A stretch of DNA of 63,905 nt, counting the filler, from Vannella sp. (taxonomy: Eukaryota): assembly GCA_023345925.1 (NCBI GenBank). It is 7 parts of 7 records of this genome, joined end to end, with 100 filler letters (N's around TTAATTAATTAA, not from the genome) between each part and the next. Parts side by side here need not be neighbours in the genome. Positions count along the whole stretch, not along the records: positions 32,934 to 43,409 come from JAJQQN010000757.1; 6 more parts are not named here. One strand, written 5' to 3'. The position numbers and the translations under genes were made by a program. The notes below the pieces were generated by a model. That model searched no databases. It was not told where the DNA came from and saw only the letters and a list, made by a program, of their open reading frames with translations. The number at the start of each line of letters is the position of its first letter. The stretch's first letter is position 1. Shown piece after piece: positions 7,712 to 43,409 of the stretch.

Positions 7712-10700
7712 ATGACGGCGATTGTCAAGTTCGAGGGCGCTAATTTGCATGATGGAGAGGTTGTAGTGGACTTGGTCTTCATCCGGCAAGGGCTCAGTGA
7801 TGAGGCTGCGGGGAGCTCTGGTGTGAAACCTTGGAAGAACTTTCACAAGACTGAACTCTGGACGAAAGACTGGTTGTTGGACGAGTTTGAGTTCCCTTGT
7901 CGAGTTTTTGATGCAAGCTACTACCCTACCACAGAGTGTTGGCAGGAACGCTTCCCTTTGCTCGAATGCAGCAAGATCATCCTCCACCAACTGACGAAGC
8001 AACGCGTGGGGGCGTTAAATCACATCACCTTCTTCTTTGCCTGGAGTCTTGACGCTCTCTTTCTCAAGCAGATCCTCCACACAGCACTGCTTGACTCTCT
8101 TGAGGTTAGTCTGGCCCTTCATTTGCTCCTGCCTTCCTCTCTCGCTCCCTTTCCTTTGGTACCCCTTTGTCTCCTTCCTTCTCTACAATGGGTACCATAT
8201 GGCGACGTTCCAGCCATAAGGTAGTGACCAGTACTCACTATGATGGGAAACGCAGCTGTTCTCGACTGTGCGTGGTGCTGGGTTCTTCTCCGCTCCTCAG
8301 AAGATGAGCGACTTGACTACCTTCACAGGAATGATCGAGTTCCTTGCTAAACACCACAACTTCTGTCGCGGGGACGATTTGAAGCTTCATGTTCCGTACT
8401 TCCAGGGCTTGAACTCCAGCTTCCTCGAGATCGCTCAGCAGCACCGGATCTCCTGTCTTAGCTTTGGTATCAAGAACGACCCTGTCATGGTATGTCGTGC
8501 GGGGCAGGAAGAGGCAAAAAGGTGCTGACATGAGCGGTTGCAGCGCGGTGTTGAGCTCCTGTACGATCCTGGCTTGGGAGAGACGCACTATTGCCCTATG
8601 CGCACACACTACAACATCACTAACTTCACTACTCGCGAGGAGCTGACTTATCTTCGCGTCTGCGGCTTTCTCCAGCGTCAGTTTGGTACGTCCCTCGTTC
8701 GCGCGCCTTCTTCTTCATTCAGGTGTCTTACTATGACTATTCTAGATGCTGAGATGAAACACCGCGCCGATACGAAGCAGCTGGAAGCTGAAAAGGCGGA
8801 ACGAGAGAAGAAAGCCATCCAAAAGAAGACGTTTACTCTCGCTATCCGCAACAAGAGCGTCGTTCTGGCCTTCGGAGAGCATTCCTCAGAGTCAGACTTT
8901 GCCAAACTGAAGAAAGATCGCCGCGCAGAGCACCCGCAAGTTATCCAACGGTTCAAAGCGCCTTCTCTCTTCATCTCTCTGCAAGATGTCCTCCTCAAGC
9001 TGGCATCTTTCCAGTCTCTTGGATCAGAAGAAGAGGCTCGTGTGAACAAATCACGGCCAGGAGAGCGTGACAAGCTCCGCCGCGAGCTGCAACTTCGTCG
9101 GTTGGCGGAAGCTCTTCAGGAAGGCGATATCACTCTCCACATTGTAGGAGAGTATCGCCACGTGTCGCTATCTATCGTATTCATCTGTCTGACGTTCAAC
9201 TTCGAGATCAAAGTCAAGAACAAAGAAGTCCGCATCCCGCAAGCTATCGAAGTCCATCAGATTGAGAGTGTTACGTGTGGTTATGACATGGACGTCGAGC
9301 TACGTCACTCTCGTATAGTTAACCGCTTAATCACGCGCTGGAATGACCTCAACCAGTGGGGAATGGCCAACAACGAGGAAAGTGAGCAACTTATTGCCGA
9401 GTTGCGTCGCTTTGCTTCCGATCCACTGAAGATAGCCATCGTTGGCAAGTCCAACGTTGGCAAGAGCACCTTCCTCAATGCCCTCCTTCGCAACAATGTG
9501 CTGCCAGAGTCTCATGAAGCCTGTACTGGTTGCGTCCTTGAAATTCGTTATGCAGAGACTGTCGAGGACGAGAACGTGGAGCTTCAGTTCATCTCTAAGA
9601 AGGAGCTTGATGTCATTGTTAAACGCTACAAGAGTGAAGCTCTGGCTCCTGACCAGGCAGAGTACAACGAACTTACTGGGGAGCGGGAACATTGGAATCC
9701 TGAGCGCACGGCCGTCTTGAAGGAGAAGATTACTATGCATAAGCAGTTCCTTAAGGACCTTTCGAGTGAATATGCTGCTATTGTTAAGGAGCATCCCAAG
9801 TTAATGCAGTATTGGGACCAAAAAACGCCAATTAAGCAGTTCATCTCTGACACAGCCGTGAACACTTCAAAGGCGCGCAGTCGGCTCATCAAATCGGCTT
9901 TCCTTTATCTACATAACCCACTGCTGCGTTCAGTCACATTGGTTGACACGCCCGGCATTGGAGAAGACAAATTGAAAGGGCGCGACCATCTTACAGAGCA
10001 AGCTGTGCGCGCTGCGGATGTCCATGGTTGGATCTACCTTACTGTTGTGATGGACATGGAAAAGAACTTCAAAGAAGACCTCAAACTCCTCAGTGAATGG
10101 AGTCCCAATGGGATTGTTTGCGTCACAAAGTTCGACCAACTCTGTAATCCCAGTGCTACTGGTACTCAGAAGCCCATTCACGACAAACTGAGCGGGAAAA
10201 TCAATGCACTGAAGGATGATGTCCTTCAGCGCCAGATTCCTGCTGTATCTTCATTAGCATTGTTCCAAATGACAACAAACTTTCCGGGCAAGAGTGGGAC
10301 TGGCATGCGCCGAGCTGAGAAGCTAGGACAAGAGGCCAATCGATTAATTCACGCTCACGTGGGTGAATACCTTCACTCTCTCATGCCTGATGACATGGAC
10401 GAGGAGATGAGCTTTGATAGTGACGAAATCTCCCTGGCACGATCATGCTTTGATCTCTGCTACCGCGATTGGGAAGACTTCCAACAGCTGATGTGTGACT
10501 TGGCTGTCGAAGGCTCCTTGTTAATGGTTTTGATGAATCTGGTCTACGACCTGATAGACAAGCGCTTCGTGGTCAAACGATTCGACCAGGTCTTGGCTGA
10601 CATCTCCACCCATTTATCACGCCGCCTGACCATCCTCACCGACGAGTTGCAGCTCACTCAGAGGGATCTCAACCATGCACTGAGTGTGGATGAATTCAGT

Positions 10701-11927
10701 AATCCTGGCCTTTCACAGACAACTCTGAATGATTTTGAACAGCAAATCAATTCTCGCATCCGCGTGCGGCAACAGCTTGAAGAGGACTGCCGAGCGCGTG
10801 AAGCAGAAGTAGAAGACATTGTCACAACACTCGGAACTGACATTTGTAATAAGATTGCGTCTCGCTTCATCGCCAAGCCCAATCCCAAGTCACCAGGAAT
10901 GTTTGACAAGCTCAAACGCTTACTATCCAAGCCTCCCGAACACCTGAGCTTGTACAAAGAACTGGATAAGAAGTTGGCTGCAGAAGTGACATCGTACCTA
11001 ACAAACACAATGCTCTGCACACCCACAGTGGAGACTCTCATTACGAACATGTTCGACTCCATCAAACACAATGTCCTACTCCAAGTCGACCGCGCTTCCA
11101 TGAACATCAACTGTCTGCGGGAGGCAAACGCGAACATTCCGTTAAGTGACCGAATTGACCTTCTCGACACAACTTCAAAAGAGGCCCACGAGAACCTTCC
11201 TGGCTTTATCTTGGAGCATTCCCGCGCAAACATCAAAATCATCGGCACTAACGCTCGGGCGCATCTCAACAATGTGCATATGATGATCATCGGGATGGTC
11301 GACAAAGAGATCTCCCATCTCCAAAGCCGCTTGATTACCCGCCGGAACAAAGTGCAGCAAGAACACGTTAAACTGAGACAACCTGCTGATGTTCTGCAAG
11401 TCCGCCAGGACAAACTCACTCGCGAGTTTGAGCAGTTGCAGAAGCTTTACTCTGCTGTGTTGCATATCGCTCTTCAGAACACGATTAAGAGTAACAAGAT
11501 CTCGCAAGTCATCCAGTCACGCAACACATTGTCGAAACCAGAGAAAGAGTACGTCTCGCGCGTGATGAAGCTATATTTGGATGAGCCAGTGGAAGATGAT
11601 GCTGCAGACGAAGAGAACGTCACTCTGTTGGACACCTATCTGTCCATTGAGGCAGTGAGCAAGTACATTTCCAACACCTACGCCAAGATCTTCACAGTGA
11701 TCACCATGGAAGACTATTTCAAGTACAAACCAGAACGAGTTATTGTGCGCAATCGCCGAGCTCTGTCGATCTTCATGCAGGCGTTCCATATGATGATCTC
11801 TCAGGTTTCCATAGATGGGTCTCAGTTCCACACAGAAAAAGACTTGGAAGAGTTGTTCTCTTCCATTGATTGCAAGATTCTGTGCGAAAAGGACAAGTTG
11901 GATGCCGCCATCGCCGCCGCCTCCTAA
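7712..11927 (+). CDS. SERAC1/SesB-like alpha/beta-hydrolase domain fused to a bacterial-type dynamin-like GTPase with helical stalk (multi-exon)
   Basis: N-terminal exons: VDLVFIRQGL, WTKDWL, FFFAWSLDALFLKQIL, VRGAGFFSAPQKMS, DPGLGETHYCPMRTHYNITNF. Introns at about 8105-8255 and 8490-8543. GTPase motifs: G1 VGKSNVGKSTFLNALL, G2 ACT, G3 LVDTPGIG, G4 TKFD, then long coiled coils. Confidence 0.8.
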
Positions 11928-22645: not shown

Positions 22646-23782
22646 ATGTCGGCCCCGAAGATCCTCCCTGGAGCGAACGACCACGAGAAGCTGCAAGCTT
22701 TGGCCAAACTGACCTACAAGCAACAGGCTGTCTGGTTCCTCAACTCCTTCTGGGAGATTGGAGAGAAGGACGCCGAGACTTTGTGGAAGTTCGTCCACAC
22801 CTGCTCTGACCTTGACCTCCAAGATCACGCGGAGGGATGTGGCTTGGACGAGGTCAACGCACATCGTTTCTTGGAAGTCTATGGCGAGACCTTGACCGTG
22901 CGTGAGCTCCGTGGTAAGCTTCGAAGCACCGGAGCTCTGGAAGAGTCTGAAAGACCCAAAGTGGTTCCTTTGACCCACTTCCTGCTCTTCAAGTACAACG
23001 TTGACTGGCATGTTCTGGTGAATGCCTCCCAGGGAGACAACGCCAAGGAGATTGAGAAGGCCCAACAGCTCCTCAATGAGGTTCAAGCCGCCTTCCGCGA
23101 GTCTGACGAGAAGCACAAAGCTGCAGCCTCTAGTTTCCGTGCTGCAGAGAAGTCTGCGAGTGAAGCTGCTGCTCGTGAAGCGAGCGCAAAGGCCTCCGAA
23201 GCTGCTGCAGTTGCCAAGGAGGAGGAGGCAATCCGACAGGAAGCTCCCTTCAAGGCCGCCCAAGAAGAGCTCGAGACCGCCCTAGCTGAGGTTAAGAAGC
23301 AGGAGGACGAGTATCAGGGCAAGATTGACGACTGCCTGAAGCGCAGTGAGGACGGAGGTGTCGTTCAGCGCAACAAAGCCAAGGCTGAGCTCGCCCAGCT
23401 GCAAGCAGAGGACCCTCTCCCTCTCCAGAGAGCCAAGATTACTCTAGAAGCTGCTCGCAAGCGCGCAGAGAAGGCTCGCGCTCCCTTTGATGCTGCCACC
23501 AAGGTTGCTCAAGAGGCTCGCGCTGTGGCTCAAGCTGATGCCCAACAAGCTTCTCAAGCCCGTCAAGCTGCTGATGCTGCCCGAGCAGAGTCCGAGAGAG
23601 CCAAGATCGTGGCCGAGCAAGCCGTAGAGGAAGCCAAGCGCCGTGTGAAGGAGGCAGAGGACTACCTTGATGAGATCAAGAAGCAGCCTGGCTGCGCTCA
23701 CGGAGCTTTGTGGTGGATTGATCGAGAGTTGCACGACGCCAAGGCTTACGTGCCAGAGAGCAAGGGCGGCTACCGCAAGTAA
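22646..23782 (+). CDS. Calcium-regulated actin-bundling protein (Dictyostelium ABP34/Entamoeba TolA-like family)
   Basis: YKQQAVWFLNSFW, LDEVNAHRFLE, AKAELAQLQAEDPLPLQRAKITLEAA, HGALWWIDRELHDAKAYVP. Confidence 0.85.
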   Translation: MSAPKILPGANDHEKLQALAKLTYKQQAVWFLNSFWEIGEKDAETLWKFVHTCSDLDLQDHAEGCGLDEVNAHRFLEVYGETLTVRELRGKLRSTGALEESERPKVVPLTHFLLFKYNVDWHVLVNASQGDNAKEIEKAQQLLNEVQAAFRESDEKHKAAASSFRAAEKSASEAAAREASAKASEAAAVAKEEEAIRQEAPFKAAQEELETALAEVKKQEDEYQGKIDDCLKRSEDGGVVQRNKAKAELAQLQAEDPLPLQRAKITLEAARKRAEKARAPFDAATKVAQEARAVAQADAQQASQARQAADAARAESERAKIVAEQAVEEAKRRVKEAEDYLDEIKKQPGCAHGALWWIDRELHDAKAYVPESKGGYRK

Positions 23783-32933: not shown

Positions 32934-33348
32934 TGGCACCGCACTGTGGAAGATTGGATCGACCAATTTGCTTATCCCTCTGCCTAAGTACTTGTGATGC
33001 TGCCTAAAAAGGTTCAAACTTCAGTTTTGGTCACGCTTTTATTCCCTTTGAATCCATGTTGTGATGCAGTGTGCCCAGAGAGTGCTCATTAAATCAAGAG
33101 AGCGACTCCAACCTGATCTCTTCAGTTCGCTTGGAGGCCAAGTCTGTTGAAATCAAAAAGCCACTTAATCTAAGGCCCTTTTTGGTCTCCCTCCTTCTGG
33201 CTCCATTTGCGTGTTTCTTTTCCGAACGAAAGCGAATTGACTGGGACATCTTTCAGAAAGGGAGGATGGTTGAATCTGACGAAGCTGGAGTAAATGTGAG
33301 TCTTTTCTGGCCATTCTGTTATGGATGAAGCAAGAGACCGTTCCCCAC

Positions 33349-33433
33349 AAACGGGGCTTCTGGCGGGGTTGCTTCTCTCTTCTCTTCAACCCCTCTCAGA
33401 CTCTCCCATAATGCCCCGCCAGAAGCCCCGTTT
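33349..33433. repeat. Perfect 20-bp inverted repeat with 45-bp spacer
   Basis: AAACGGGGCTTCTGGCGGGG (33349-33368) / CCCCGCCAGAAGCCCCGTTT (33414-33433). Confidence 0.9.
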
Positions 33434-33532
33434 TTCGAAGCCTACTATTGAGGGGTTAGTTTACCTTGATGCTACTGTAGGGGGGGGGGCAAGTAACTAA
33501 TTGCCTCTCTTATTTTATTCCTCTCGTTCATC

Positions 33533-35985
33533 ATGGACGCCAACTTCGAAAGCATCGTTGGTGGGGGGAGTTTGATCGAGTTGAAGGAGTTTTTGAACGC
33601 TCATCCAGAGTATCTCAACCAAGTGCGTCCCTTTCTCCTTCTACTTCTCAGCTCCCTTTCCTAGACCGGAGGATTGCCCTTCTGGGGAGAAGGACTCACC
33701 AAAAGCTCTCCTTTTAGGTTGTAAGTGACTGAACCATCAACCTTGAAGGAGCCTTCCATGTGAAAGAAGAGGAGGAGGACAAGAACTCACCCAAAGACTC
33801 TCATTAGGCTGTAAGAGACTGATCCACCGCCCATTGAGGAGAAGAACGACTCTTTGAGAAGGAGGAGATCAAAGAGGAGAAGGACTAACCAAAAGGATCT
33901 CTTTTAGTGGGTAAGTCACTTCATTCGTCACCCCTTAGATCGTACCAAGGGACACGAGAGAGGACTCATCGGCAGCCTTTTTCATAGGAAGTAAGTGGCT
34001 GATCCCTCACCTCTCTGGATGAAGAGGACCCCAAAGGGACTCACAAGGATCTCATTTAGGATGTAAGTGACCTCCTCCTTTGAAGTGACCTACACCTTTG
34101 TTATTGAAGGAAGAAGATATTGATAAGAGGGGCCCTTAGGATGTAAGAAGGAGATGAACCGTCGCAGGAGAAGAACGAAAAGAACTCACCAAGGGGATCT
34201 ATTTTAGAGAGTGAGTGACTTGCACCTCATCTCTTTAAAAGTGTCTCTCGCCGGAGGAGATTACTAATAGAAAGGGGTCTATAGTTGGTAAGTGGCTGAT
34301 TTTACTGCTATTGATGGGAAGAGAGAATGGAAGGAAGAAGAGGTACTCACCAAAAGAACCACTGTTTAGGAAGTAAGTGACTTTTCCATCCCTTTTTCTT
34401 TAGAACTTCTTGAAAAAAAGGGCGAAAACTCACGACATAGGTCTCTTTTAGTGGGTCAGTTGTTATACACAGTCTCCTGGGGGGTCGTAGAAAAGGAAAC
34501 TTACCAGGAGGGTCTCTTTTAGAGCGTAAGTGACTGAATAATACCTCTTTTGAGTAACTGGACTCTCAAAAGAAGGAGAGGAGGTGGACCTCACAAATGG
34601 TGTCATTTAGCAAGTAAGTGACCTTCCAAAAGGTGCTTTCTCAGAAGAGGGGACTAAGCCAAAGATTGTCTAGAAAGTAAGAAGCTGATTGATCAGCGAT
34701 TTTGAGGGAGATTCTCCCAAAAGATGAAGAAGAAGGAACTCACCAAAAAGGATATCTAGGCAGTAAGTATCTAATCTTCTCCTTGTCTTTAGGAGAAAAG
34801 AAACTCACCGAGTGAATCTCTTTTAGTGGGTAAGCGATCGATCCAGAAGTAGGGAGGCTTACCGTCTTCCCAGGTGAGTTGCTAGAGATGTCTGGAATGT
34901 TAACTTTCTGCTTTAACACTATTTCATTCACACCGAAGATCGCTAACAAGTTGGAAGACCTCTTTAGGATGGGCTTCGTATCAAGGATGGGCTGAAATCG
35001 TGGAGTTATTAGTTTCTCGGCGTGGTATTGACCTTCAAAAGGGAGTAAGTTCTCTACTTTGAACAAATGAATTCCCCTTACCTCAGCGATTCTCAGAATG
35101 TAAGTTTGCTTCGCATCTCATCACTCCAGAAGGATTGGGACATTCAACTTTGGTCATTCCAAGTGTTGGACTTTGTAACCATTAACTTTCCTCCCGAGAG
35201 GATACTATCGAACATTAGAAGAGGAATAGAGTGGAGAGTAGCTCACCAAAAGGACCCTTTTAGGCAGTAAGTCCATCACCCGAGCAGAAGGACTATTTGA
35301 AGGTAGAACTCACATTAAAGGGTCAATCAAGATCGTAAGGGCCAGTCTACTCTATGACATGGATAGGAGGAGAGCTCTCAACAGAGAAATTGTACTCATG
35401 CAAAAGGATCTCATTTAGGGTGTAAGTGACTGACAGATCGCTCCTTCCTTGGAAAAGGTTTCCTTTTTTAATTGAAGTGGAAGGAGACCAAAAAGTACTT
35501 ACCAAAAAAGGGCCATTATTTAGGGAGTAAGTGAATGATACCTCCCCGTTAAAGGAAGAATGGGGCAAACTGAGGTTGTAGAGAGTGAGTTCAGGAGATG
35601 AGCCGAAAGGACAAACAGAGCTCACCAAAGGATGTGGTTTAGGGAGTAAGTGATTCTTGCATAATCTGAGGAGAACCGCTGCTAATCGTAAAATCCTTTT
35701 CAGCTTGTAAGTGACTAATCTTTCGTCTCTTTTTGAAGAAGATAACTAACTGGAATCATTTAGACCGCATTGGATCTTGCTATTCGCAAGGAACCTTCAA
35801 TCCCTGATTCGGTTGTTGAGATTCTTATCTTTGCAGGGGCCAGGTGCGAGGATGTAGGGACATCTATTCCATGGAAATAGAGGGCTCACCTTCAGAAGGA
35901 GAAACCCCTGCTCGCCAAATACGTGGCGAAGGAGAAACCGGCAACCAAGAGTCAGAAAACTCGGCAACAATGCATGATGTCTTAA
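33533..35985 (+). CDS. Small ankyrin-repeat protein with 23 single-codon (3-nt) micro-exons
   Basis: Constant exons: 33533-33622 (MDANFESIVGGGSLIELKEFLNAHPEYLNQ), 34958-35044 (TSLGWASYQGWAEIVELLVSRRGIDLQKG) and 35764 onward (TALDLAIRKEPSIPDSVVEILIFAGARCED...). They are separated by arrays of AG|NNN|GT units. Ends at TAG 35880, or at TAA 35985 (CMMS) if a 42-nt intron is removed. Confidence 0.88.
33718..34829 (+). repeat. Micro-exon array 1 (15 x 3 nt: V A W E D D R L E W S Q K A W)
   Basis: Codon starts: GTT 33718, GCT 33808, TGG 33908, GAA 33988, GAT 34060, GAT 34140, AGA 34208, TTG 34285, GAA 34370, TGG 34452, AGC 34523, CAA 34611, AAA 34674, GCA 34760, TGG 34827. Each is preceded by a TAG acceptor and followed by GTAAG/GTGAG (one GTCAG). 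Confidence 0.9.
35097..35706 (+). repeat. Micro-exon array 2 (8 x 3 nt: N A I G G R G L)
   Basis: Codon starts: AAT 35097, GCA 35264, ATC 35332, GGT 35419, GGA 35524, AGA 35582, GGA 35643, CTT 35704. Each is flanked by AG and GTRAG. Confidence 0.88.
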
Positions 35986-36399
35986 TGAGGTACTTCAACG
36001 AATCGGCATGATTCCAGCTTTGCCGAAACTGAGTGGAAATGAATCATCCTTTTCACTAATGACTGGTTTTGATTGGTGTATACAATGGTCGTCTCGAACG
36101 GGCAAAGAATTCTGAATTGACTGATGGAGTCAAGGCCTCATTCCCAGAGGCTCATGCATCTCACTATCGGAGGTTGTAAACTGGTTTTCAAGATCTCGAG
36201 TGTGCTGCAAAACCTGTTGCGTCGGATACCTGCGAAGTCCTGAAGGTAAGAGCCAAGATGAAGTGCCCCAAGCATACAACAGCTCAGGTATATAACTTAT
36301 ACTTTAGGCTGAATAGTCTGATTCTCTTCCTGGCATTTCTCTAAAGTACCTATGACCAGTCATTCCATAGCTCTCTTCAAGAGCCTCTTTTTCCATGCC

Positions 36400-37305
36400 C
36401 TTTGGTAATCACACGCTACTTCTCTCCCCTGGAGGCCTTTGGGCTTTCGGATACAACTATTACTACCAACTCGGTCTTTCTGACAGGAATGACCAATTGT
36501 AGCCAGTCAAGGTTCCTTGGGATGGCCCGCAGCCACTTAATGTGGACTGGGGAAAGAAACACTCTCTTGTTCTCGACGAAGAGGGCGTTGTGTGGGATGC
36601 TGGAATCTGCCGATTTAACACCTTCCAAAGAGTTACCGGACTTCCTTTGATCGTTTCGGTGGCCGCCGGCCTATTTCACAGATACTGAAGGCGGTCTTTG
36701 GGTGTGGACGAGCAAGAGGGCAAGCTCTATTCCGCAGCGAGTAGAAGGCCTCCCTCCACTTCTTAAGGTAGCGTGTGGTAATGAATTCATGGTGGTGGAG
36801 TCCGACGAAGGTCTCTGGGCTTGCGGCAGGAATTCTAAAGGACAATTGGGCCTCGGTCATACCAATCCTGTCAAACGACCTTCTCCTGTCCAGATTGAGG
36901 GACGTTCTCCTGGACCACTACGATCTCTGGCTGCACTGGAAGACGGAACGATCCTCATTGCAAGGAGACGTCTTCTCTTGTGGGGGCAACCGCCGTAACC
37001 AACTGGGGCGCTCTTCTGGGGACCTGACAAAGCTTCAGAGAATCAATGGCATTCCTCCCATGCTTTCAGCATCCTGTGGATTGAGACACACACTCTCTCT
37101 GGATGAGAACGGCGCGGCCTGGTCTTGGGGATGCGGCATGACTGGGGAGTTGGGGACTAGCCGGTCTGATAATGGCGAGCCACTTCTCATTCAATCACTC
37201 AAGGAACTGAGAGAAGTGAACGCAGTGCAAAATTCAAACAAACGCACCTTTCACGGTCGGAGCTCTTCTGCACCAATCAGGATAGGCAGCCACCGACACC
37301 GATAA
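36400..37305 (+). pseudogene. RCC1-repeat gene remnant
   Basis: KVACGNEFMVV...LWACGRNSKGQLGLGH and VFSCGGNRRNQLG...SASCGLRHTLSLDENGAAWSWGCGMTGELG lie in different frames (frameshift near 36960); the upstream portion is also broken. Confidence 0.75.
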
Positions 37306-37412
37306 CGTGTGACCCACTAAACATAGCGTTTTGCCTCGAATCTCATTTATCCAGATTCCCCTTCATCATCAGGCCAGTCATTGAGCTTCTCTGAGGCGTT
37401 TCTTTGTCAGAC

Positions 37413-40400
37413 TCAGCATCTAGCAAGGAAGGCTGGGACGGTGACTCGCTTCATCTGGTACATTGCTTTGGCCCCAGCGTCGTCGCGTTCGTAACCTCCC
37501 GGGCGAGTGCCGAGGAGTTGATCTTGAGCTTGCGCTTCTCTCATGAACTGGTCCAGCTTCTCTGCTTGGACAATGTAGGAAAGATAGCTCTGCTGGTTCT
37601 CCGAGGTCTTCATCGTTCTTTGGAGCATTCGCTGCGTGGAGATGAGATTGATTCGGGCATCAAAGTAGCGCCCTTGTTGAGCATGGTTTGCACTCGCTTG
37701 AATTGTCTGAAGAGCTGTGACAATCGAATTCACCCCCGCTTCCGCTTCAAGGCGGTCTACAGAGACCGGCAATCGGAAGCTCTGCACCCGCAATCTTCGT
37801 TCTCCAGTGCTGCTTGTCCATTCTACTTGCACCTGGATAGGGACTCCCTCTGAAAAAGGCACTTTCATGCCAGCAGCCTCCTCGTCGGTTGCTTGGTGAT
37901 AGGAAGAAAGGAGTGAGAGGGCCTGAGAACTGAATTCCAAAGCGAAAGTGGCGTTGGCGGAGGGAGAAACTGAACCAGCTTCTACTTGGAGTGTCTGGAG
38001 TTCTGTTCCCGCAAACTGAAGCCCTTCGCCAAGGAGAACAGTTGACCGGACATTGGTGGCGACTGTGGTGTCTTTGAGCATGTTTTGGAAGGCTGTGCCC
38101 AGATTGAGAGGATTAACGATCTCAACGCTTCCTGAACTCAAGTCAGCCGCAGTGCCCAAGTGCTCGAGTCCGGATTCCTCCCCTTCAGTAGCAATGACGT
38201 GGAGCTGAACTCCAGAGGCTTTCGCGATCTTTCCGATCTCCGAATAGAAAGCGTTGTCTGACCCAAGAGATCCCATGCCTTCATTGGCTGCTCCATCCGT
38301 ACATAGAATGACCTTACTCCCAGGGAAGGCACTGGCCACTCCTGTTGATAGGGCCATGGCAGGCCCCAATGCCGTCATATCGACAGATCTTAGGCTTGCG
38401 ACAGCCTTCTGGAGGTTATCATAGACTTCAGCAACACTACGAGCATGAGCTGCGAGGTTCCTGCCCTCAGCAAGAAGTTGAGTTTGTGTGAGAGCGGAGG
38501 AAATAGATTTGAGCGTTATTCGGCGGGACGAGACTTGGTGGAAGCTCAGTGTGGATGCAAATGAGATCAAAGCGACCTTTGTTTCAGGTGACGTCTTCAA
38601 GAGGTGATTCAGTTGCTCTTTGACGGCAGCCTTGACGCATTCTAGTCGTGATTTAGAGTTGTTCACGATGGCGTCCATGCTTCCGCTCACGTCCACACAA
38701 AAAACAACAAGAGAGGAGCTCTTCGTAGTTCCTACATCTTGGCCTGCTTGCAAGAGGAAGCTGATAGCAGTCTCTGCCTTTGGAAGACAGTCTCCTTCCT
38801 CCTCAACGTCATTCAGCTCCTCACAAATTGCACAAGTCCAACAAGTCCCACTGACTTGCTGGGAAGAGGTAAGAATAGCCGAACATTCCTTGCAAAGAGA
38901 GGGATCTCCTGTCTGCATTGGGAGGTCCTCCGAAACACATTCTCCAACGTGAACCAAAAGGGAGTTCACTGAAGTCAGTGGCTGAGTTTTGACCACGCTT
39001 GTCTTCTTCTTCTGGACAGGTTCAGCAGGTTCAATTCCCTTTGTTTGAGACGTTTCTTCTGGGACTGGGTTGATGGCCTTAGAGGAAGGAGTCACCACTA
39101 CCGGGGGAGCTTTAGGGGTTCCAGAAAGCACGTATAAGTTGCTGTCGAACTCCCTAGGTCCAGTTTCGTTGAAGTCTCCCTGAAGATACCAATTAAACTT
39201 GGAAAGGCTCCCCAGAATAGAGCCACCAATCCAAGAGGAATGCCTTCGCTCTGGCAACGAAAGCACTTGAACTGTTAGTGCTGAAGGGAGCATGGCTTTG
39301 AGGTCTCTTTCAATGCGCTCTGAGATGCCACGGAACAATGACGAGCCTCCGGCGAGTACAATTCGTGAGCAAAGCGCCTGGCGGTAGTCAGGATGGCACT
39401 TCATAATCGAAGTGAAGATTGCATCACTGAGGCCAATACTATCGTCGCTTCCGAAGGCCGGTTGGAAGAGGAGTTCGGGCGCACGGAAAAGTTCCGAGCC
39501 CAAAGAGATCACTTGGCCATCCGGAAGCTCGTAAGAGTGAGCTGTTGGCCTTTGGCGCTTCATTTCCTCTTCAAAGTTCGTGGCAACGAAGCAGAGTTTC
39601 TCCTTAATGTCCCGTACAATCTCCCTCTCTGCTGTGGTGGTAAAGGAGTAGCCACGCTCTGTTGTGATCTTCATCAGGTAGTCTGTGACACTCCTCCCTC
39701 CTAACTTGGTGTAGACGCCAGCTTCTGTCAGAGGCGCTCCTCCGAAGACAGGAACGACACTGATTCCTGAGTCCGTCATGTTGACTGCAAGTCCATCGAG
39801 TGCTCCAGAAGCTATGATCGTCAGAGACGATCTGCTGATGACACTACAAGCAGGCACGTTGAAGTTCTCGAAGAGAATCTGGACAATCTTCTCCTGGTCC
39901 TTTCGTGGCAAGTTTGGATGGATGGAGAAGAGGACAGGATGCTCCTCGGGGCCCACCCGAAGCTCATTGTAGAGGACATGGTGGATGATCTTCTCGTAGT
40001 CATCCCAGTTGCTGACCTGATCCCCCTCGACTGGATACTTCATCGTAAGGACGCCTCTCTTGGATTGCGCCTCGTCTCCAACGTAAGAGTCCTTCTGGCC
40101 CATTCCAACCATCACTCCACAGTGCCTGGGACGCCCTACGATGGACGGTAAGACACAACGAGGCGCGTCATCACCAGCAAAGCCCGCGCTGGTCCATCCA
40201 GACCCAATCTGCACCACCAGTGCGCAGTTGCTGAGCTCTTCGTTGGCATTGGACGTCATTTCTTGGAGCATAGCTCTGTAAGGCTTCCATCCGTTGTGGC
40301 TGTTGGCGTTCATCCGTTCCCGAGACTCTAGGATGGACTTCTTGGCAGCCAGAGCAGCTGACACGCGCTTCTGTTCGTTCTGGTTTGCGATACGGTCAAA

Positions 40401-40682
40401 GTAGTCGCTTCCCTTCTGGTAACGAGGTTGTAGGCGCGTCCGGCAGCCCATTCCTCCTGAACGGGAACGCGCAGCTTGGTCGTACTTGCCAGCGAGTTGC
40501 TGGAGCTCATGGACGAAAGCCGCGTTCGAAGAGTCACTCCCTTCCTCCTCTAGTGCTTGAGCCCAAGCCTGAGCCTGCTCCTGTGCAGCAAAAGCAATGC
40601 CATCGTTGATCTCCTCCTCGAAGATGTCTTCGACCTCCTTGTCAATGTCCGCGAATAAAAATGCGCTCGCAAACTCTGCCAT
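37413..40682 (-). CDS. Actin-domain fusion protein: N-terminal extension + actin + Sec23/24-type Zn finger + vWA (CPRas1-like C-terminal module)
   Basis: Intronless, about 1089 aa. Actin: AGFAGDDAPR, VGRPRH.GVMVGMGQKDSYVGDEAQSKRG, TERGYSFTTTAEREIVRDIKEKLC, YELPDGQVI, SWIGGSIL. Then CKECSA...WTCAICEELN, the vWA MIDAS VFCVDVSGSM, TALGPA and ILCTDGAANEG. Confidence 0.92.
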   Translation of the reverse strand: MAEFASAFLFADIDKEVEDIFEEEINDGIAFAAQEQAQAWAQALEEEGSDSSNAAFVHELQQLAGKYDQAARSRSGGMGCRTRLQPRYQKGSDYFDRIANQNEQKRVSAALAAKKSILESRERMNANSHNGWKPYRAMLQEMTSNANEELSNCALVVQIGSGWTSAGFAGDDAPRCVLPSIVGRPRHCGVMVGMGQKDSYVGDEAQSKRGVLTMKYPVEGDQVSNWDDYEKIIHHVLYNELRVGPEEHPVLFSIHPNLPRKDQEKIVQILFENFNVPACSVISRSSLTIIASGALDGLAVNMTDSGISVVPVFGGAPLTEAGVYTKLGGRSVTDYLMKITTERGYSFTTTAEREIVRDIKEKLCFVATNFEEEMKRQRPTAHSYELPDGQVISLGSELFRAPELLFQPAFGSDDSIGLSDAIFTSIMKCHPDYRQALCSRIVLAGGSSLFRGISERIERDLKAMLPSALTVQVLSLPERRHSSWIGGSILGSLSKFNWYLQGDFNETGPREFDSNLYVLSGTPKAPPVVVTPSSKAINPVPEETSQTKGIEPAEPVQKKKTSVVKTQPLTSVNSLLVHVGECVSEDLPMQTGDPSLCKECSAILTSSQQVSGTCWTCAICEELNDVEEEGDCLPKAETAISFLLQAGQDVGTTKSSSLVVFCVDVSGSMDAIVNNSKSRLECVKAAVKEQLNHLLKTSPETKVALISFASTLSFHQVSSRRITLKSISSALTQTQLLAEGRNLAAHARSVAEVYDNLQKAVASLRSVDMTALGPAMALSTGVASAFPGSKVILCTDGAANEGMGSLGSDNAFYSEIGKIAKASGVQLHVIATEGEESGLEHLGTAADLSSGSVEIVNPLNLGTAFQNMLKDTTVATNVRSTVLLGEGLQFAGTELQTLQVEAGSVSPSANATFALEFSSQALSLLSSYHQATDEEAAGMKVPFSEGVPIQVQVEWTSSTGERRLRVQSFRLPVSVDRLEAEAGVNSIVTALQTIQASANHAQQGRYFDARINLISTQRMLQRTMKTSENQQSYLSYIVQAEKLDQFMREAQAQDQLLGTRPGGYERDDAGAKAMYQMKRVTVPAFLARC

Positions 40683-40887
40683 TGAATGGCTCTTTCTAAT
40701 GAATACCACCCATTCCCGTCCGCATTAAATAGAGGTCTGTTTCGCCAATCTTTTTTTCTTGGAAATGAAAATCCGCTAATTTTGCGCCCAATCACAGCGC
40801 GTCTTGGATCTTGATGCAAAACAAATCAAATCCTGATTGTGGCGTTTGCAAATCATTTATTGACATTTATTTGTTTGTTGAGCAGGA

Positions 40888-41349
40888 ATGACGAGGGTCA
40901 CTCTGTTGGTGCTTGTGTTGATTGGGGTTTGTTTTGGTGGCAATGCTGGGAAGGATGTGATGTACCAGAAGAGGATTGGCTTGGTCTTTCAGCAGCTATT
41001 TGCTCCCAACGTGACCTGCGCGCAGTGGGCGAGCAACAACTTTGAAGAGGAAGGTGCGTGGTATCACCCCAACCTGCCTGAAGGGGCCGTTGGTTGGTCC
41101 CAGATACAGTCTTTCTGTGAAGACACTCGCTTCTCCTTCCCACAATCGGTCTACCTTCCCACTGTTCTCCCCCAACTCACCCACTCTGGGGACTACGCCT
41201 TTGCGTCAGTGGACTACGTTTTCTCCTCCAACCAACCAACATCACCCTTCTCCAACTGGGGGAACGTCTTCTTTGCCCTAAACGACGATTACATCATCCA
41301 CTACGCGGTTGAAACGTGGACCCGCCGCGTCTGGCCCGCCCAGCTGTAA
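40888..41349 (+). CDS. Secreted small protein, possibly SnoaL/NTF2-like fold
   Basis: Signal peptide MTRVTLLVLVLIGVCFG; W...F.E.G.WYHP....AVGW..I..F pattern. Confidence 0.6.
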   Translation: MTRVTLLVLVLIGVCFGGNAGKDVMYQKRIGLVFQQLFAPNVTCAQWASNNFEEEGAWYHPNLPEGAVGWSQIQSFCEDTRFSFPQSVYLPTVLPQLTHSGDYAFASVDYVFSSNQPTSPFSNWGNVFFALNDDYIIHYAVETWTRRVWPAQL

Positions 41350-41550
41350 TCCCTCTCAACTCACTAAAGTGGCTAACATCTCTCCAGTCACTGAAGAAGG
41401 GGATCGTTGAGGACGAGCCCCTCAACTCGCTTACCATTGGTCAGAACACTCCTCTTCACTGATTGGTCCAACGGGCCCGAGGAAGGTCCCGAGATGAATC
41501 AGATGATCTCGGCTTTGAAAGGTTCTTTTTTTCCATTTTATTGTCTCCTG

Positions 41551-43149
41551 ATGCAGTCGATTAACCCTGCGACCGGCGAGACTTTGGCTCCAGTTCCGTT
41601 GACGCCGGAGGGGGAGTTCCCTGCAGTGTTTGAAAGGGCGAGAGAGGCGCAGCGTGCATGGAGGGAGGTTTCTATGAAGGAGCGTGCTCGTTGTGTGCAG
41701 AGGGTGCGCCGTTTCATTGCTGATCATGCGGAGGAGGCGGCTGAGATCGTCTCTCGCACGACTGGTAAGACAAGGGTTGATGCCCTTGCAACAGAGGTTA
41801 TACCCTGCACATTAGCATGCGACTGGTATGCCAACAACACCCAGCAAGTCCTCAAACCGCAGCGTATCCCGAATGGTTCAATCCTCTTTGTGAACAAGTC
41901 CACCTTCCTGGAGTACCAGCCTGTTGGCGTGGTGGGGATCATATCGCCATGGAACTACCCCTTAAGCATCCCCCTTGGAGAGGTGGTAATGGGTCTCATG
42001 GCAGGAAACGCCGTCGTGCTCAAGGTTGCAACGCCCACTGTGCTGGTGGGAGCATTCATTGAGAGGTGCATTGATGCTGGTGGCTTCCCTGAGGGACTCT
42101 TCTATCACATTGTCGGGGGCGGTGCGGCGGTGTCTCAGGCAATGTTCACCCACCGCGTGGACAAAATCTTCTTTACTGGCTCCGTGCGAGTAGGGAAGGA
42201 GCTCATGAAGATGGCATCAGATACACTCACACCCGTATCCCTGGAACTGGGAGGGAAGGATCCAATGATTGTGTGCCGCGATGCCAATCTGGAACGAGCG
42301 GCCAACTGCGCCTTGTGGGCAGGATACCAGAATGCCGGGCAATCTTGCGGAGGTGTTGAACGGATCTATGTTCACGTCTCCCGATACGATGAATTTGTCC
42401 GTCTTCTGGCAAAGAAGACAGCTGCCCTTCGCCACGGAGCAGATCAAAATGGCCAGAGAGTGGATATGGGCAGTATGACTACCGAAGCACAACTCAATGT
42501 TGTCAAGAAACAGGTGGAAGATGCTGTGGCTGGTGGGGCAACGGTGATTGCGCAATCTCAGCCTGTTGGAGACGTTTCCGTAGGATTCTTCTTTCCTGCA
42601 ACTCTGATGACGAATGTGACTCACCAAATGAGCATTATGAGAGAAGAGACATTTGGTCCAGTTCTTCCAGTGATGTCTTTTGATACTCTGGAAGAAGCTA
42701 TCTCTTTGGCAAACGATTCCTGCTTTGCATTGACTTCTTCTGTATTCTCAGAGAACCGCTCCACGGCAACCTGGATAGCTAAGAGGATAGAATCAGGAGT
42801 GGTCACGATTAATGATCATTTGTACACTCACGGACTGAGTGAGACACCTTGGGGAGGTTGGAAGGAAAGTGGAATTGGAAGAACTCACTGTGCGTTGGGC
42901 CTGAGGGAAATGAGCAATGCTAAGGCCATTAACTACGAGTTACTGCCTTCCTGGCTGATCCCACGGAACATTTGGTGGTATCCCTTTGCTGAAGACTCTT
43001 ATCAGGCTTGTTTGGGGATTGTCCGCTTTGCTGCACCAAGATCACCCCTCGACTGGATAGGAGGCGCCCACCAACTCATCCCCTACGCATTGCGTAGAAT
43101 GCTCACTCGTTGGTCAGTTCCTGAATCTCCAATTCCAACCGAAAATTGA
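41551..43149 (+). CDS. NAD(P)-dependent aldehyde dehydrogenase
   Basis: SINPATGE, ISPWNYP, FTGSVRVG, LELGGKDP, catalytic Cys in NAGQSCGG, EETFGPVL, PWGGWKESGIG; intronless. Confidence 0.96.
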   Translation: MQSINPATGETLAPVPLTPEGEFPAVFERAREAQRAWREVSMKERARCVQRVRRFIADHAEEAAEIVSRTTGKTRVDALATEVIPCTLACDWYANNTQQVLKPQRIPNGSILFVNKSTFLEYQPVGVVGIISPWNYPLSIPLGEVVMGLMAGNAVVLKVATPTVLVGAFIERCIDAGGFPEGLFYHIVGGGAAVSQAMFTHRVDKIFFTGSVRVGKELMKMASDTLTPVSLELGGKDPMIVCRDANLERAANCALWAGYQNAGQSCGGVERIYVHVSRYDEFVRLLAKKTAALRHGADQNGQRVDMGSMTTEAQLNVVKKQVEDAVAGGATVIAQSQPVGDVSVGFFFPATLMTNVTHQMSIMREETFGPVLPVMSFDTLEEAISLANDSCFALTSSVFSENRSTATWIAKRIESGVVTINDHLYTHGLSETPWGGWKESGIGRTHCALGLREMSNAKAINYELLPSWLIPRNIWWYPFAEDSYQACLGIVRFAAPRSPLDWIGGAHQLIPYALRRMLTRWSVPESPIPTEN

Positions 43150-43409
43150 AACTGCTCACTTTGCATTGTCTCTGTTGAAGCGCGCTGAGCGAAATTCTCT
43201 CGAATGATTGTAATACAAATCATAGGAATCAGTTCATCCATAGAAGTCACTTTTGATCGCTCTGATGGAATCTGAGCAGAGAAGAAAGTGACATTATTCC
43301 ATCCCCCAGCTCAACAAAATGGAAAGAATCGCTTCGAGATGATATTGAGAAGTTGGTCCGTGAGGAAGTTCTCTCGTGAGAGTAAGCTGCATTTGGATTG
43401 GTAATCAGG

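Follow-up and report, generated by a model that had tools for sequence, protein, structure and literature searches.

A gene interrupted by arrays of three-nucleotide units

The window analysed here is a stretch of 63,905 nt from Vannella sp. (assembly GCA_023345925.1), in which seven pieces are joined by N linkers. Piece 32934-43409 carries a candidate ankyrin gene, starting 600 nt from the left edge of the piece, in which constant exons are separated by two arrays of three-nucleotide units (Table 1). An in-frame stop lies shortly 5′ of the ATG of exon 1, with no AG between stop and ATG. The continuous plus-strand frames across the locus contain 38-51 stops each, and continuous-frame coding on that strand was rejected on this ground; open stretches on the minus strand reach up to 132 aa. 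No second copy of the gene was found in the window.

Table 1. Features of the ankyrin locus and of other parts of the window.
Feature	Coordinates	Strand	Description
Dynamin-like frame	8538-11927	+	1129-aa open frame with dynamin-like GTPase domain
Marker protein	22646-23779		used for host placement
Constant exon 1	33533-33622	+	30 codons from ATG; frame and GTGCGT donor at 33623
Array 1	33718-34829	+	15 three-nt units, introns 60-97 nt
Array 1 unit starts, first eight	33718, 33808, 33908, 33988, 34060, 34140, 34208, 34285	+	
Array 1 unit starts, last seven	34370, 34452, 34523, 34611, 34674, 34760, 34827	+	
Zero-length unit	34873-34874	+	branch-like motif, CAG, directly followed by GTGAG donor; inside 128-nt intron 34830-34957
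Constant exon 2	34958-35044	+	29 codons; helix pair and linker of an ankyrin repeat, without the hairpin
Array 2	35097-35706	+	8 three-nt units, introns 52-164 nt
Array 2 unit starts	35097, 35264, 35332, 35419, 35524, 35582, 35643, 35704	+	
Longest array 2 intron	35100-35263	+	164 nt
Constant exon 3	35764-35853	+	about 30 codons; acceptor and frame seen, 3′ end predicted
Predicted intron	35854-35895	+	42 nt (45 or 48 with the next acceptors); GTAGGG donor, branch-like CTCAC, three in-frame acceptors
Predicted exon 4	35896-35985	+	lysine/arginine-rich tail, CaaX-type motif, TAA; same frame as exon 3
RCC1-repeat stretch	36300-37300		broken; adjoins the ankyrin gene
Actin-Sec23/VWA fusion	37413-40709	-	1098-aa open frame; actin-like domain fused to zinc finger and Sec23/VWA-like domain

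Between 33533 and 35985, 24 of the 26 GT[ACG]AG donors have an AG exactly 3 nt upstream, and these 24 are the 23 micro-units together with the end of the middle exon. All other AG-donor spacings from 0 to 12 nt occur 0-4 times on the plus strand, and 1000 dinucleotide shuffles gave a mean of 0.9 and a maximum of 6 donors with an AG at 3 nt, compared with 24 in the real sequence. A sequence-only reading of this DNA had placed 15 + 8 units at this locus; every one was recovered as AG + 3 nt + GT(A/G/C)AG, including the single GTCAG donor that it described, and its exon sizes of 30 and 29 aa, in phase 0 throughout, were correct. It was also right that no unit is a stop codon, although by itself this carries little weight, 23 random codons being free of stops with probability 0.33. 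Full inclusion of all 23 units gives an open, stop-free reading.

The intron lengths, which had been put at mostly 52-102 nt, agree with this range for most introns, but two are longer (128 and 164 nt). The zero-length unit divides the first of these into 44 + 84 nt; it is the single spacing-0 match in the region (34873/34874) and could possibly act as a recursive splice point. The other long intron, at 164 nt, spans roughly two ordinary unit lengths and may contain a unit since lost, of which no relic was recognised. A search of both long introns found no additional unit that combines a GC or weak donor with a credible acceptor.

The arrays are present in DNA samples of several studies

DNA runs carrying the window comprise three biofilm metagenomes of one study (X1-X3), possibly the source of the window, covering shares of 0.54-0.79, and three freshwater metagenomes, each from another study (X4-X6), covering 0.06-0.08. 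Contigs of X1-X3 span most of the ankyrin gene with 0-2 differences, while 151-nt pieces from X4, X5 and X6 correspond to parts of array 1, to the last unit with exon 3, and to the tail, with 0-1 differences. Because these contigs and pieces match at 0-2 differences, the micro-unit array is present in the DNA and is not an assembly artefact.

The neighbours of the gene on its piece are eukaryotic (an RCC1-like fragment, the actin-Sec23/VWA fusion and an aldehyde dehydrogenase). For the marker protein, Vannella (Amoebozoa, Discosea) is the best named match at 65%, and relatives closer than this reach identities of up to 84%. A quick tree built from 52 of the 120 proteins listed gave no placement in a named genus. 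The host is thus likely an uncultured amoebozoan, assuming that all pieces come from one organism. In run X1 the RCC1-repeat stretch has a summed depth of 36-75, compared with 1-9 elsewhere, and is represented by many divergent contigs, indicating a large multi-copy family.

Splice signals of the micro-units differ from those of candidate ordinary introns

For comparison we used 22 candidate introns predicted ab initio from the rest of the window, some of which are surely false. A branch-like motif before the units had been described, and CT-N-A-Y is found at -20 to -26 in 20 of the 23 upstream introns. The motif starts at a median of -23 before micro-units compared with -16 in the 22 candidates (Mann-Whitney p 0.0002), a contrast that p-values overstate since the micro-units share ancestry and are not independent. 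The gene also provides an internal control, as the motif stands at -15 and -18 before its own constant exons. Median intron length is 77 nt for micro-unit introns and 48.5 nt for the candidates. GTAAGT donors make up 16/24 at the micro-array versus 2/22 among candidates, purines account for 83% versus 52% of the 13 nt preceding the branch motif, and the acceptor is TAG in 20/23 micro-units versus CAG in 17/22 candidates. In vertebrate neural microexons a longer branch-to-acceptor distance has been reported, which the authors, in the accessible part of their paper, interpret as room that promotes inclusion (PMC12871342). The long distance seen here is in line with that report and supports the units being real exons, without favouring skipping.

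A CT(A/G)A branch-like motif was additionally observed at +9 after 9 of the 23 micro-unit donors (33721-35720) and after none of the 22 candidate donors; as background, 15 of 261 donors have a branch-like motif within +7 to +16. This motif could compete with donor recognition, or could be inherited.

Comparison of the units with one another gave junction identities of 51% within array 1, 44% within array 2 and 47% between arrays. The three exon columns lie at 0.26-0.30 identity, which is the random level, and intron interiors are barely above shuffled sequence (scores of 14.7 versus 12.3). By these measures the units descend from a common unit but are old. A simple satellite was rejected: TRF detected no tandem array at the locus, the units are about 50% identical and their interiors barely exceed shuffled controls. 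The spacer is constant at 3 nt while intron lengths vary from 52 to 164 nt. Because the interiors have decayed while the 3-nt spacer and the splice signals have been kept, the units do not behave as a neutral repeat; from their sequence they look like maintained splice cassettes.

Intron folding showed no signal (mean z -0.44, 7/25 below -1), and no specific long-range pairing that could drive skipping was found in the micro-unit introns. Docking-site pairing of the Dscam type was rejected for now, own-intron pairing scoring -8.5 compared with -7.3 and -8.4 for cross pairing. Rfam returned two matches on the locus, both far below gathering.

The arrays lie at predicted hairpins of a probable ankyrin scaffold

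The identification of the middle exon as an ankyrin repeat was borne out by PDB alignments, a weak Pfam Ank match and language-model clusters. Residues 3-26 of exon 2 align to positions 6-28 of the 33-position Pfam Ank model (E 0.061), with a score of 14.1 bits that is below the cut-off of 21.1. In the PDB, 136 sequences matched at E up to 10, and the best 60 consist almost entirely of DARPins and further ankyrin proteins; DARPins and Kidins220 stand on top, with whole chains reaching E values of 2e-8 (Kidins220, 3e-6) and single stretches being weak. By language-model features, 10 of the 10 best named matches belong to the ankyrin clan, at a low recognition value. Neither exon 1 nor exon 3 has an ankyrin match in Pfam or PDB. 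Exon 3 has language-model look-alikes in ankyrin clusters (0.90-0.94) and is probably the last ankyrin repeat; exon 1, assigned by eye, is likely an N-terminal capping repeat and shows no hydrophobic leader on inspection. The product would be about 120-145 aa long, with about three repeats.

In the Pfam and DARPin alignments, the first residue of exon 2 is the Thr with which helix 1 starts, and the exon contains a one-residue insertion. The same alignments place array 2 at the hairpin, and both arrays fall at hairpin positions, as had been proposed. DARPin libraries include the beta-turn among their randomised positions, and engineered LoopDARPins tolerate an added loop, according to the available sections of one report (PMC4384111). 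Where about four codons had been thought to complete the repeat after the middle exon, the alignments give five; the related claim that more codons are offered than a repeat needs holds for both arrays, with 8 versus 5 in array 2 and, in the same register, 15 versus about 6 in array 1. The first unit of array 2 encodes Asn and its last two encode Gly and Leu. These residues fit the conserved ends of the turn in the ankyrin consensus. With the fixed turn positions filled in this way, five units would be left for two variable places. Array 1 ends in Trp, and because it has no Gly codon among its 15 units, no subset of it gives a fully canonical turn.

Ordered subsets of the units would encode 23,556 distinct peptides for array 1 and 160 for array 2. 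Since residues recur among units, the ceiling falls from the 2^23 subsets originally counted to 3,768,960 combined peptides; likewise, 4-by-4 choices give 36,000 rather than 95,550. Choosing six units in array 1 and five in array 2 yields 3480 x 36 = 125,280 peptides.

A predicted fourth exon ends in a CaaX-type motif

The third exon had been described as 30 aa or more. Its acceptor and frame stand, but the frame meets a TAG at 35878, so that an extra short intron is needed. Beyond the TAG the same frame runs on to a basic stretch and a CaaX-type end at 35985, and an intron of 42-48 nt starting at 35854 takes out the TAG in frame. The 42-nt size agrees with the candidate ordinary introns of the window. 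A CaaX motif is a C-terminal Cys-aliphatic-aliphatic-X, here following a basic stretch; the motif terminates only 5 of 1602 stop-terminated segments in the window. A fourth exon with basic stretch and CaaX motif is therefore probable, dependent on a predicted intron with a modest donor. We consider it somewhat likely from this sequence that the tail undergoes prenylation and thereby anchors the protein to the cytosolic face of a membrane.

Paralogue-like contigs and similar arrays elsewhere

Contigs of X1-X3 that are about 80-88% identical to the gene cover exon 2 without indels, and 7 of 14 among the changes listed are synonymous. One non-synonymous change in these paralogue-like contigs affects a variable position of a helix. 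The same samples contain at least two divergent versions of exon 2, as well as further units, at a depth similar to that of the gene. One contig extends into a GTAAG donor placed at the identical boundary of exon 2, and at several loose contig ends a purine run, a branch motif and a unit are set in different intron sequence. These contigs point to a gene family, with related strains as the alternative.

Protein searches yielded no relative. Exon 2 with its flank, a short query searched against longer proteins only, gave 0 related among 19 candidates, a weak negative. Exon 3 had four matches among 1.84 billion representatives, and the two inspected are repeat proteins that share a short word; exon 3 with the tail gave no candidate, again a weak negative with queries of 30-70 aa. 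A phage search with an exon-sized query returned no match.

A pattern scan had been suggested earlier as a means of finding paralogues. The two-unit pattern hit 24 loci in metagenome contigs, at least 17 of which have chains of 4-26 units. It did not find relatives of the ankyrin gene, as none of the 34 pattern loci matches its four exons (tblastn, best E 0.26). Among the matches listed, the 17 chain loci contain 268 codons with no stop; one further locus is a simple repeat and six are without a chain. The two-unit pattern had 0 matches in prokaryote genomes and viral contigs. Ten viral loci obtained with a three-unit pattern were rejected, as their near-fixed periods resemble those of ordinary tandem repeats.

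A P-loop GTPase-like family with weak MMR_HSR1/Arf matches accounts for 13 of the 24 loci (L012, L017, L020, L023, L024, L027-L034). These are intron-containing genes that end in chains of 10-23 three-nt units with a period of about 70 nt (for example L033:2070-3400, L017:1858-3566 and L032:3468-4460, all on the plus strand). Homologues have the first units in common and then differ in unit number (13-23) and codons. From its intron style we would guess that the family is fungal. Elsewhere, in genes of unassigned kind, L022 carries two chains of 18 + 26 units on the minus strand, L014:598-815 has a chain of 4 units, and a chain of 9 units with low codon diversity is seen at L018:2984-3619 and L019; L018 also contains a reverse transcriptase fragment.

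How the units might be used

On the sequence evidence, the 23 units are very probably spliced as exons. A 3-nt exon would be too small for acceptor and donor factors at once, and because it could not hold both, introns would be removed one after another and some units would be passed over. With good probability, such sequential removal would produce ordered subsets that differ in the length and content of the loop. Skipping of single-codon exons would always be in frame, and the loop variants would be carried on a fixed ankyrin scaffold, likely prenylated. The whole reading that we favour on balance, in which spliced micro-exons and their skipping vary two loops of a small anchored binder, is a probable one. 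Several observations weigh against it: exons 1 and 3 lack a profile or structure match to ankyrin and exon 2 is below cut-off; the short candidate introns suggest intron definition, which favours the joining of neighbours; and the purpose of such near-perfect donors and of the lengthened branch distance may be inclusion.

If all 23 units were always included, the gene would make one protein whose two hairpin loops exceed the canonical length by 9 and 3 residues, and the arrays would be an oddity of intron proliferation. Strong donors together with a long branch distance would help towards this outcome, the genome has short introns, the reading is open without a stop, and engineered LoopDARPins carry an extra loop in the portion of the report available (PMC4384111). 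We nevertheless judge it unlikely, for about 2.1 kb of intron would be spent on 23 codons placed only at hairpins while the helical cores are unbroken, both arrays exceed the canonical need, and one published ankyrin case, in Tuber, is described as alternatively spliced in what is available of the papers citing it.

Diversity could instead reside in DNA: through unequal exchange, alleles and paralogues would gain, lose and mutate units, each copy having one loop sequence. The unrelated GTPase-like arrays, whose homologues vary in unit number and codons, offer a parallel, and in some same-sample contigs the matches to two distant units are separated by different sequence. The joints in these contigs have short sides (20-22 nt), however, and fit paralogues equally well; units only about 50% alike are a poor substrate for exchange, and the sequence of the window recurs in the X4-X6 pieces with 0-1 differences. 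This explanation, which would be compatible with skipping, is quite improbable. Slightly less probable still is that the units are stepping stones of recursive splicing, or relics, with constant exons joined directly, or that the gene is dead. The zero-length AG/GT unit, the in-frame TAG unless the predicted intron is used, and the absence of a protein relative in searches with exon-sized queries all lean that way. Stepping stones, however, have no need of the fixed 3-nt spacer kept in 23 units, direct joining would delete both hairpins and leave a 29-residue repeat, and splice signals have stayed intact in all 23 although the interiors have diverged.

Relation to known systems

The NLR genes of the nank class in Tuber melanosporum, with 3-bp mini-exons, were reportedly described by Iotti et al. 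in 2012. Papers citing that work describe, in the sections available, NACHT-ankyrin genes with tens of alternatively spliced 3-bp exons (PMC4986451, PMC10197012, PMC3689799, PMC9815663, PMC13449251). They confirm the precedent named in the sequence-only reading; on these accounts nank is the closest one, and the use of codon-sized exons to diversify ankyrin sensor domains was already known. The present gene resembles nank, as so described, in having tens of codon-sized exons in an ankyrin gene, here known from DNA alone, in a recognition domain that alternative splicing is proposed to diversify, and, if the paralogue-like contigs are copies rather than related strains, in belonging to a multigene family. 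It differs in that no NACHT or other effector domain was found, in having about three repeats and a probable CaaX anchor, and in its likely amoebozoan rather than fungal host; splicing is reported for Tuber and predicted here. No long open frame that might encode a NACHT domain lies upstream of exon 1 within the 600 nt to the contig edge, and because none was found in this available DNA, the gene would not be counted as a nank member.

Micro-exon genes (MEG) of Schistosoma, as far as the accessible text describes them, have exons of 3-81 bp, introns of up to 5 kb and secreted products, the solved case being disordered (PMC10526429). They share rows of very short in-frame exons with the gene studied here, and many isoforms per MEG gene are reported (PMC10526429, PMC10399815). 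All 23 exons here are instead 3 nt long, with introns of 52-164 nt, and the units fall in loops of a predicted folded scaffold that has a predicted CaaX-type end and in which no secretion signal was seen. DARPin and LoopDARPin libraries offer a structural likeness, a capped ankyrin scaffold with beta-turn variation; in the part of that report available, they are engineered, of fixed length and also randomised in helix 1 (PMC4384111). The present gene is natural, its helices are fixed, and its loops are predicted to vary in length under a constraint on order.

Within the literature covered, mostly outside subscription journals, no amoebozoan and no stand-alone ankyrin micro-exon case was found. 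Dscam is a splicing-based repertoire that swaps whole repeats or domains, whereas the unit here is one amino acid. In brown-algal NB-ARC-TPR and ROCO genes, a splicing-based repertoire of candidate receptors, exon shuffling likewise swaps whole repeats or domains in the excerpts available, compared with single residues here (PMC13449251). What appears new is a stand-alone, probably membrane-anchored ankyrin gene with one-codon exons in another lineage, along with its probable fourth exon with CaaX and the paralogue-like contigs.

Implications

By analogy with these systems, we tentatively suggest, at clearly less than even probability, that the repertoire might serve to recognise ligands of various kinds, such as those of microbes that are ingested or live inside the cell. 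A wider reading would hold that a free-living amoeba possesses a family of stand-alone, membrane-anchored natural DARPins, in which stochastic skipping composes both binding loops one residue at a time into 10^4-10^6 possible binders per gene, serving the recognition of engulfed or intracellular microbes and arisen independently of truffles; this is rather doubtful. It would imply, with the same doubt attached to the two jointly, that a unicellular eukaryote has an anticipatory repertoire of receptors and that codon cassettes are a design used repeatedly among eukaryote lineages.

ORF callers and short-read aligners overlook genes with one-codon exons, so that these may be common, one narrow pattern having given at least 17 more array loci. 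At 2.5 kb the gene is a compact test bed for how 15 successive 3-nt exons are dealt with by a spliceosome, and it brings its own controls in the branch distances of micro versus constant exons and in the one zero-length unit. If cDNA showed ordered subsets, this would be a second eukaryote lineage with the truffle NLR solution, pared down to a minimal binder. If true, the finding speaks for a generally available way of diversifying receptors somatically that leaves the DNA unrearranged.
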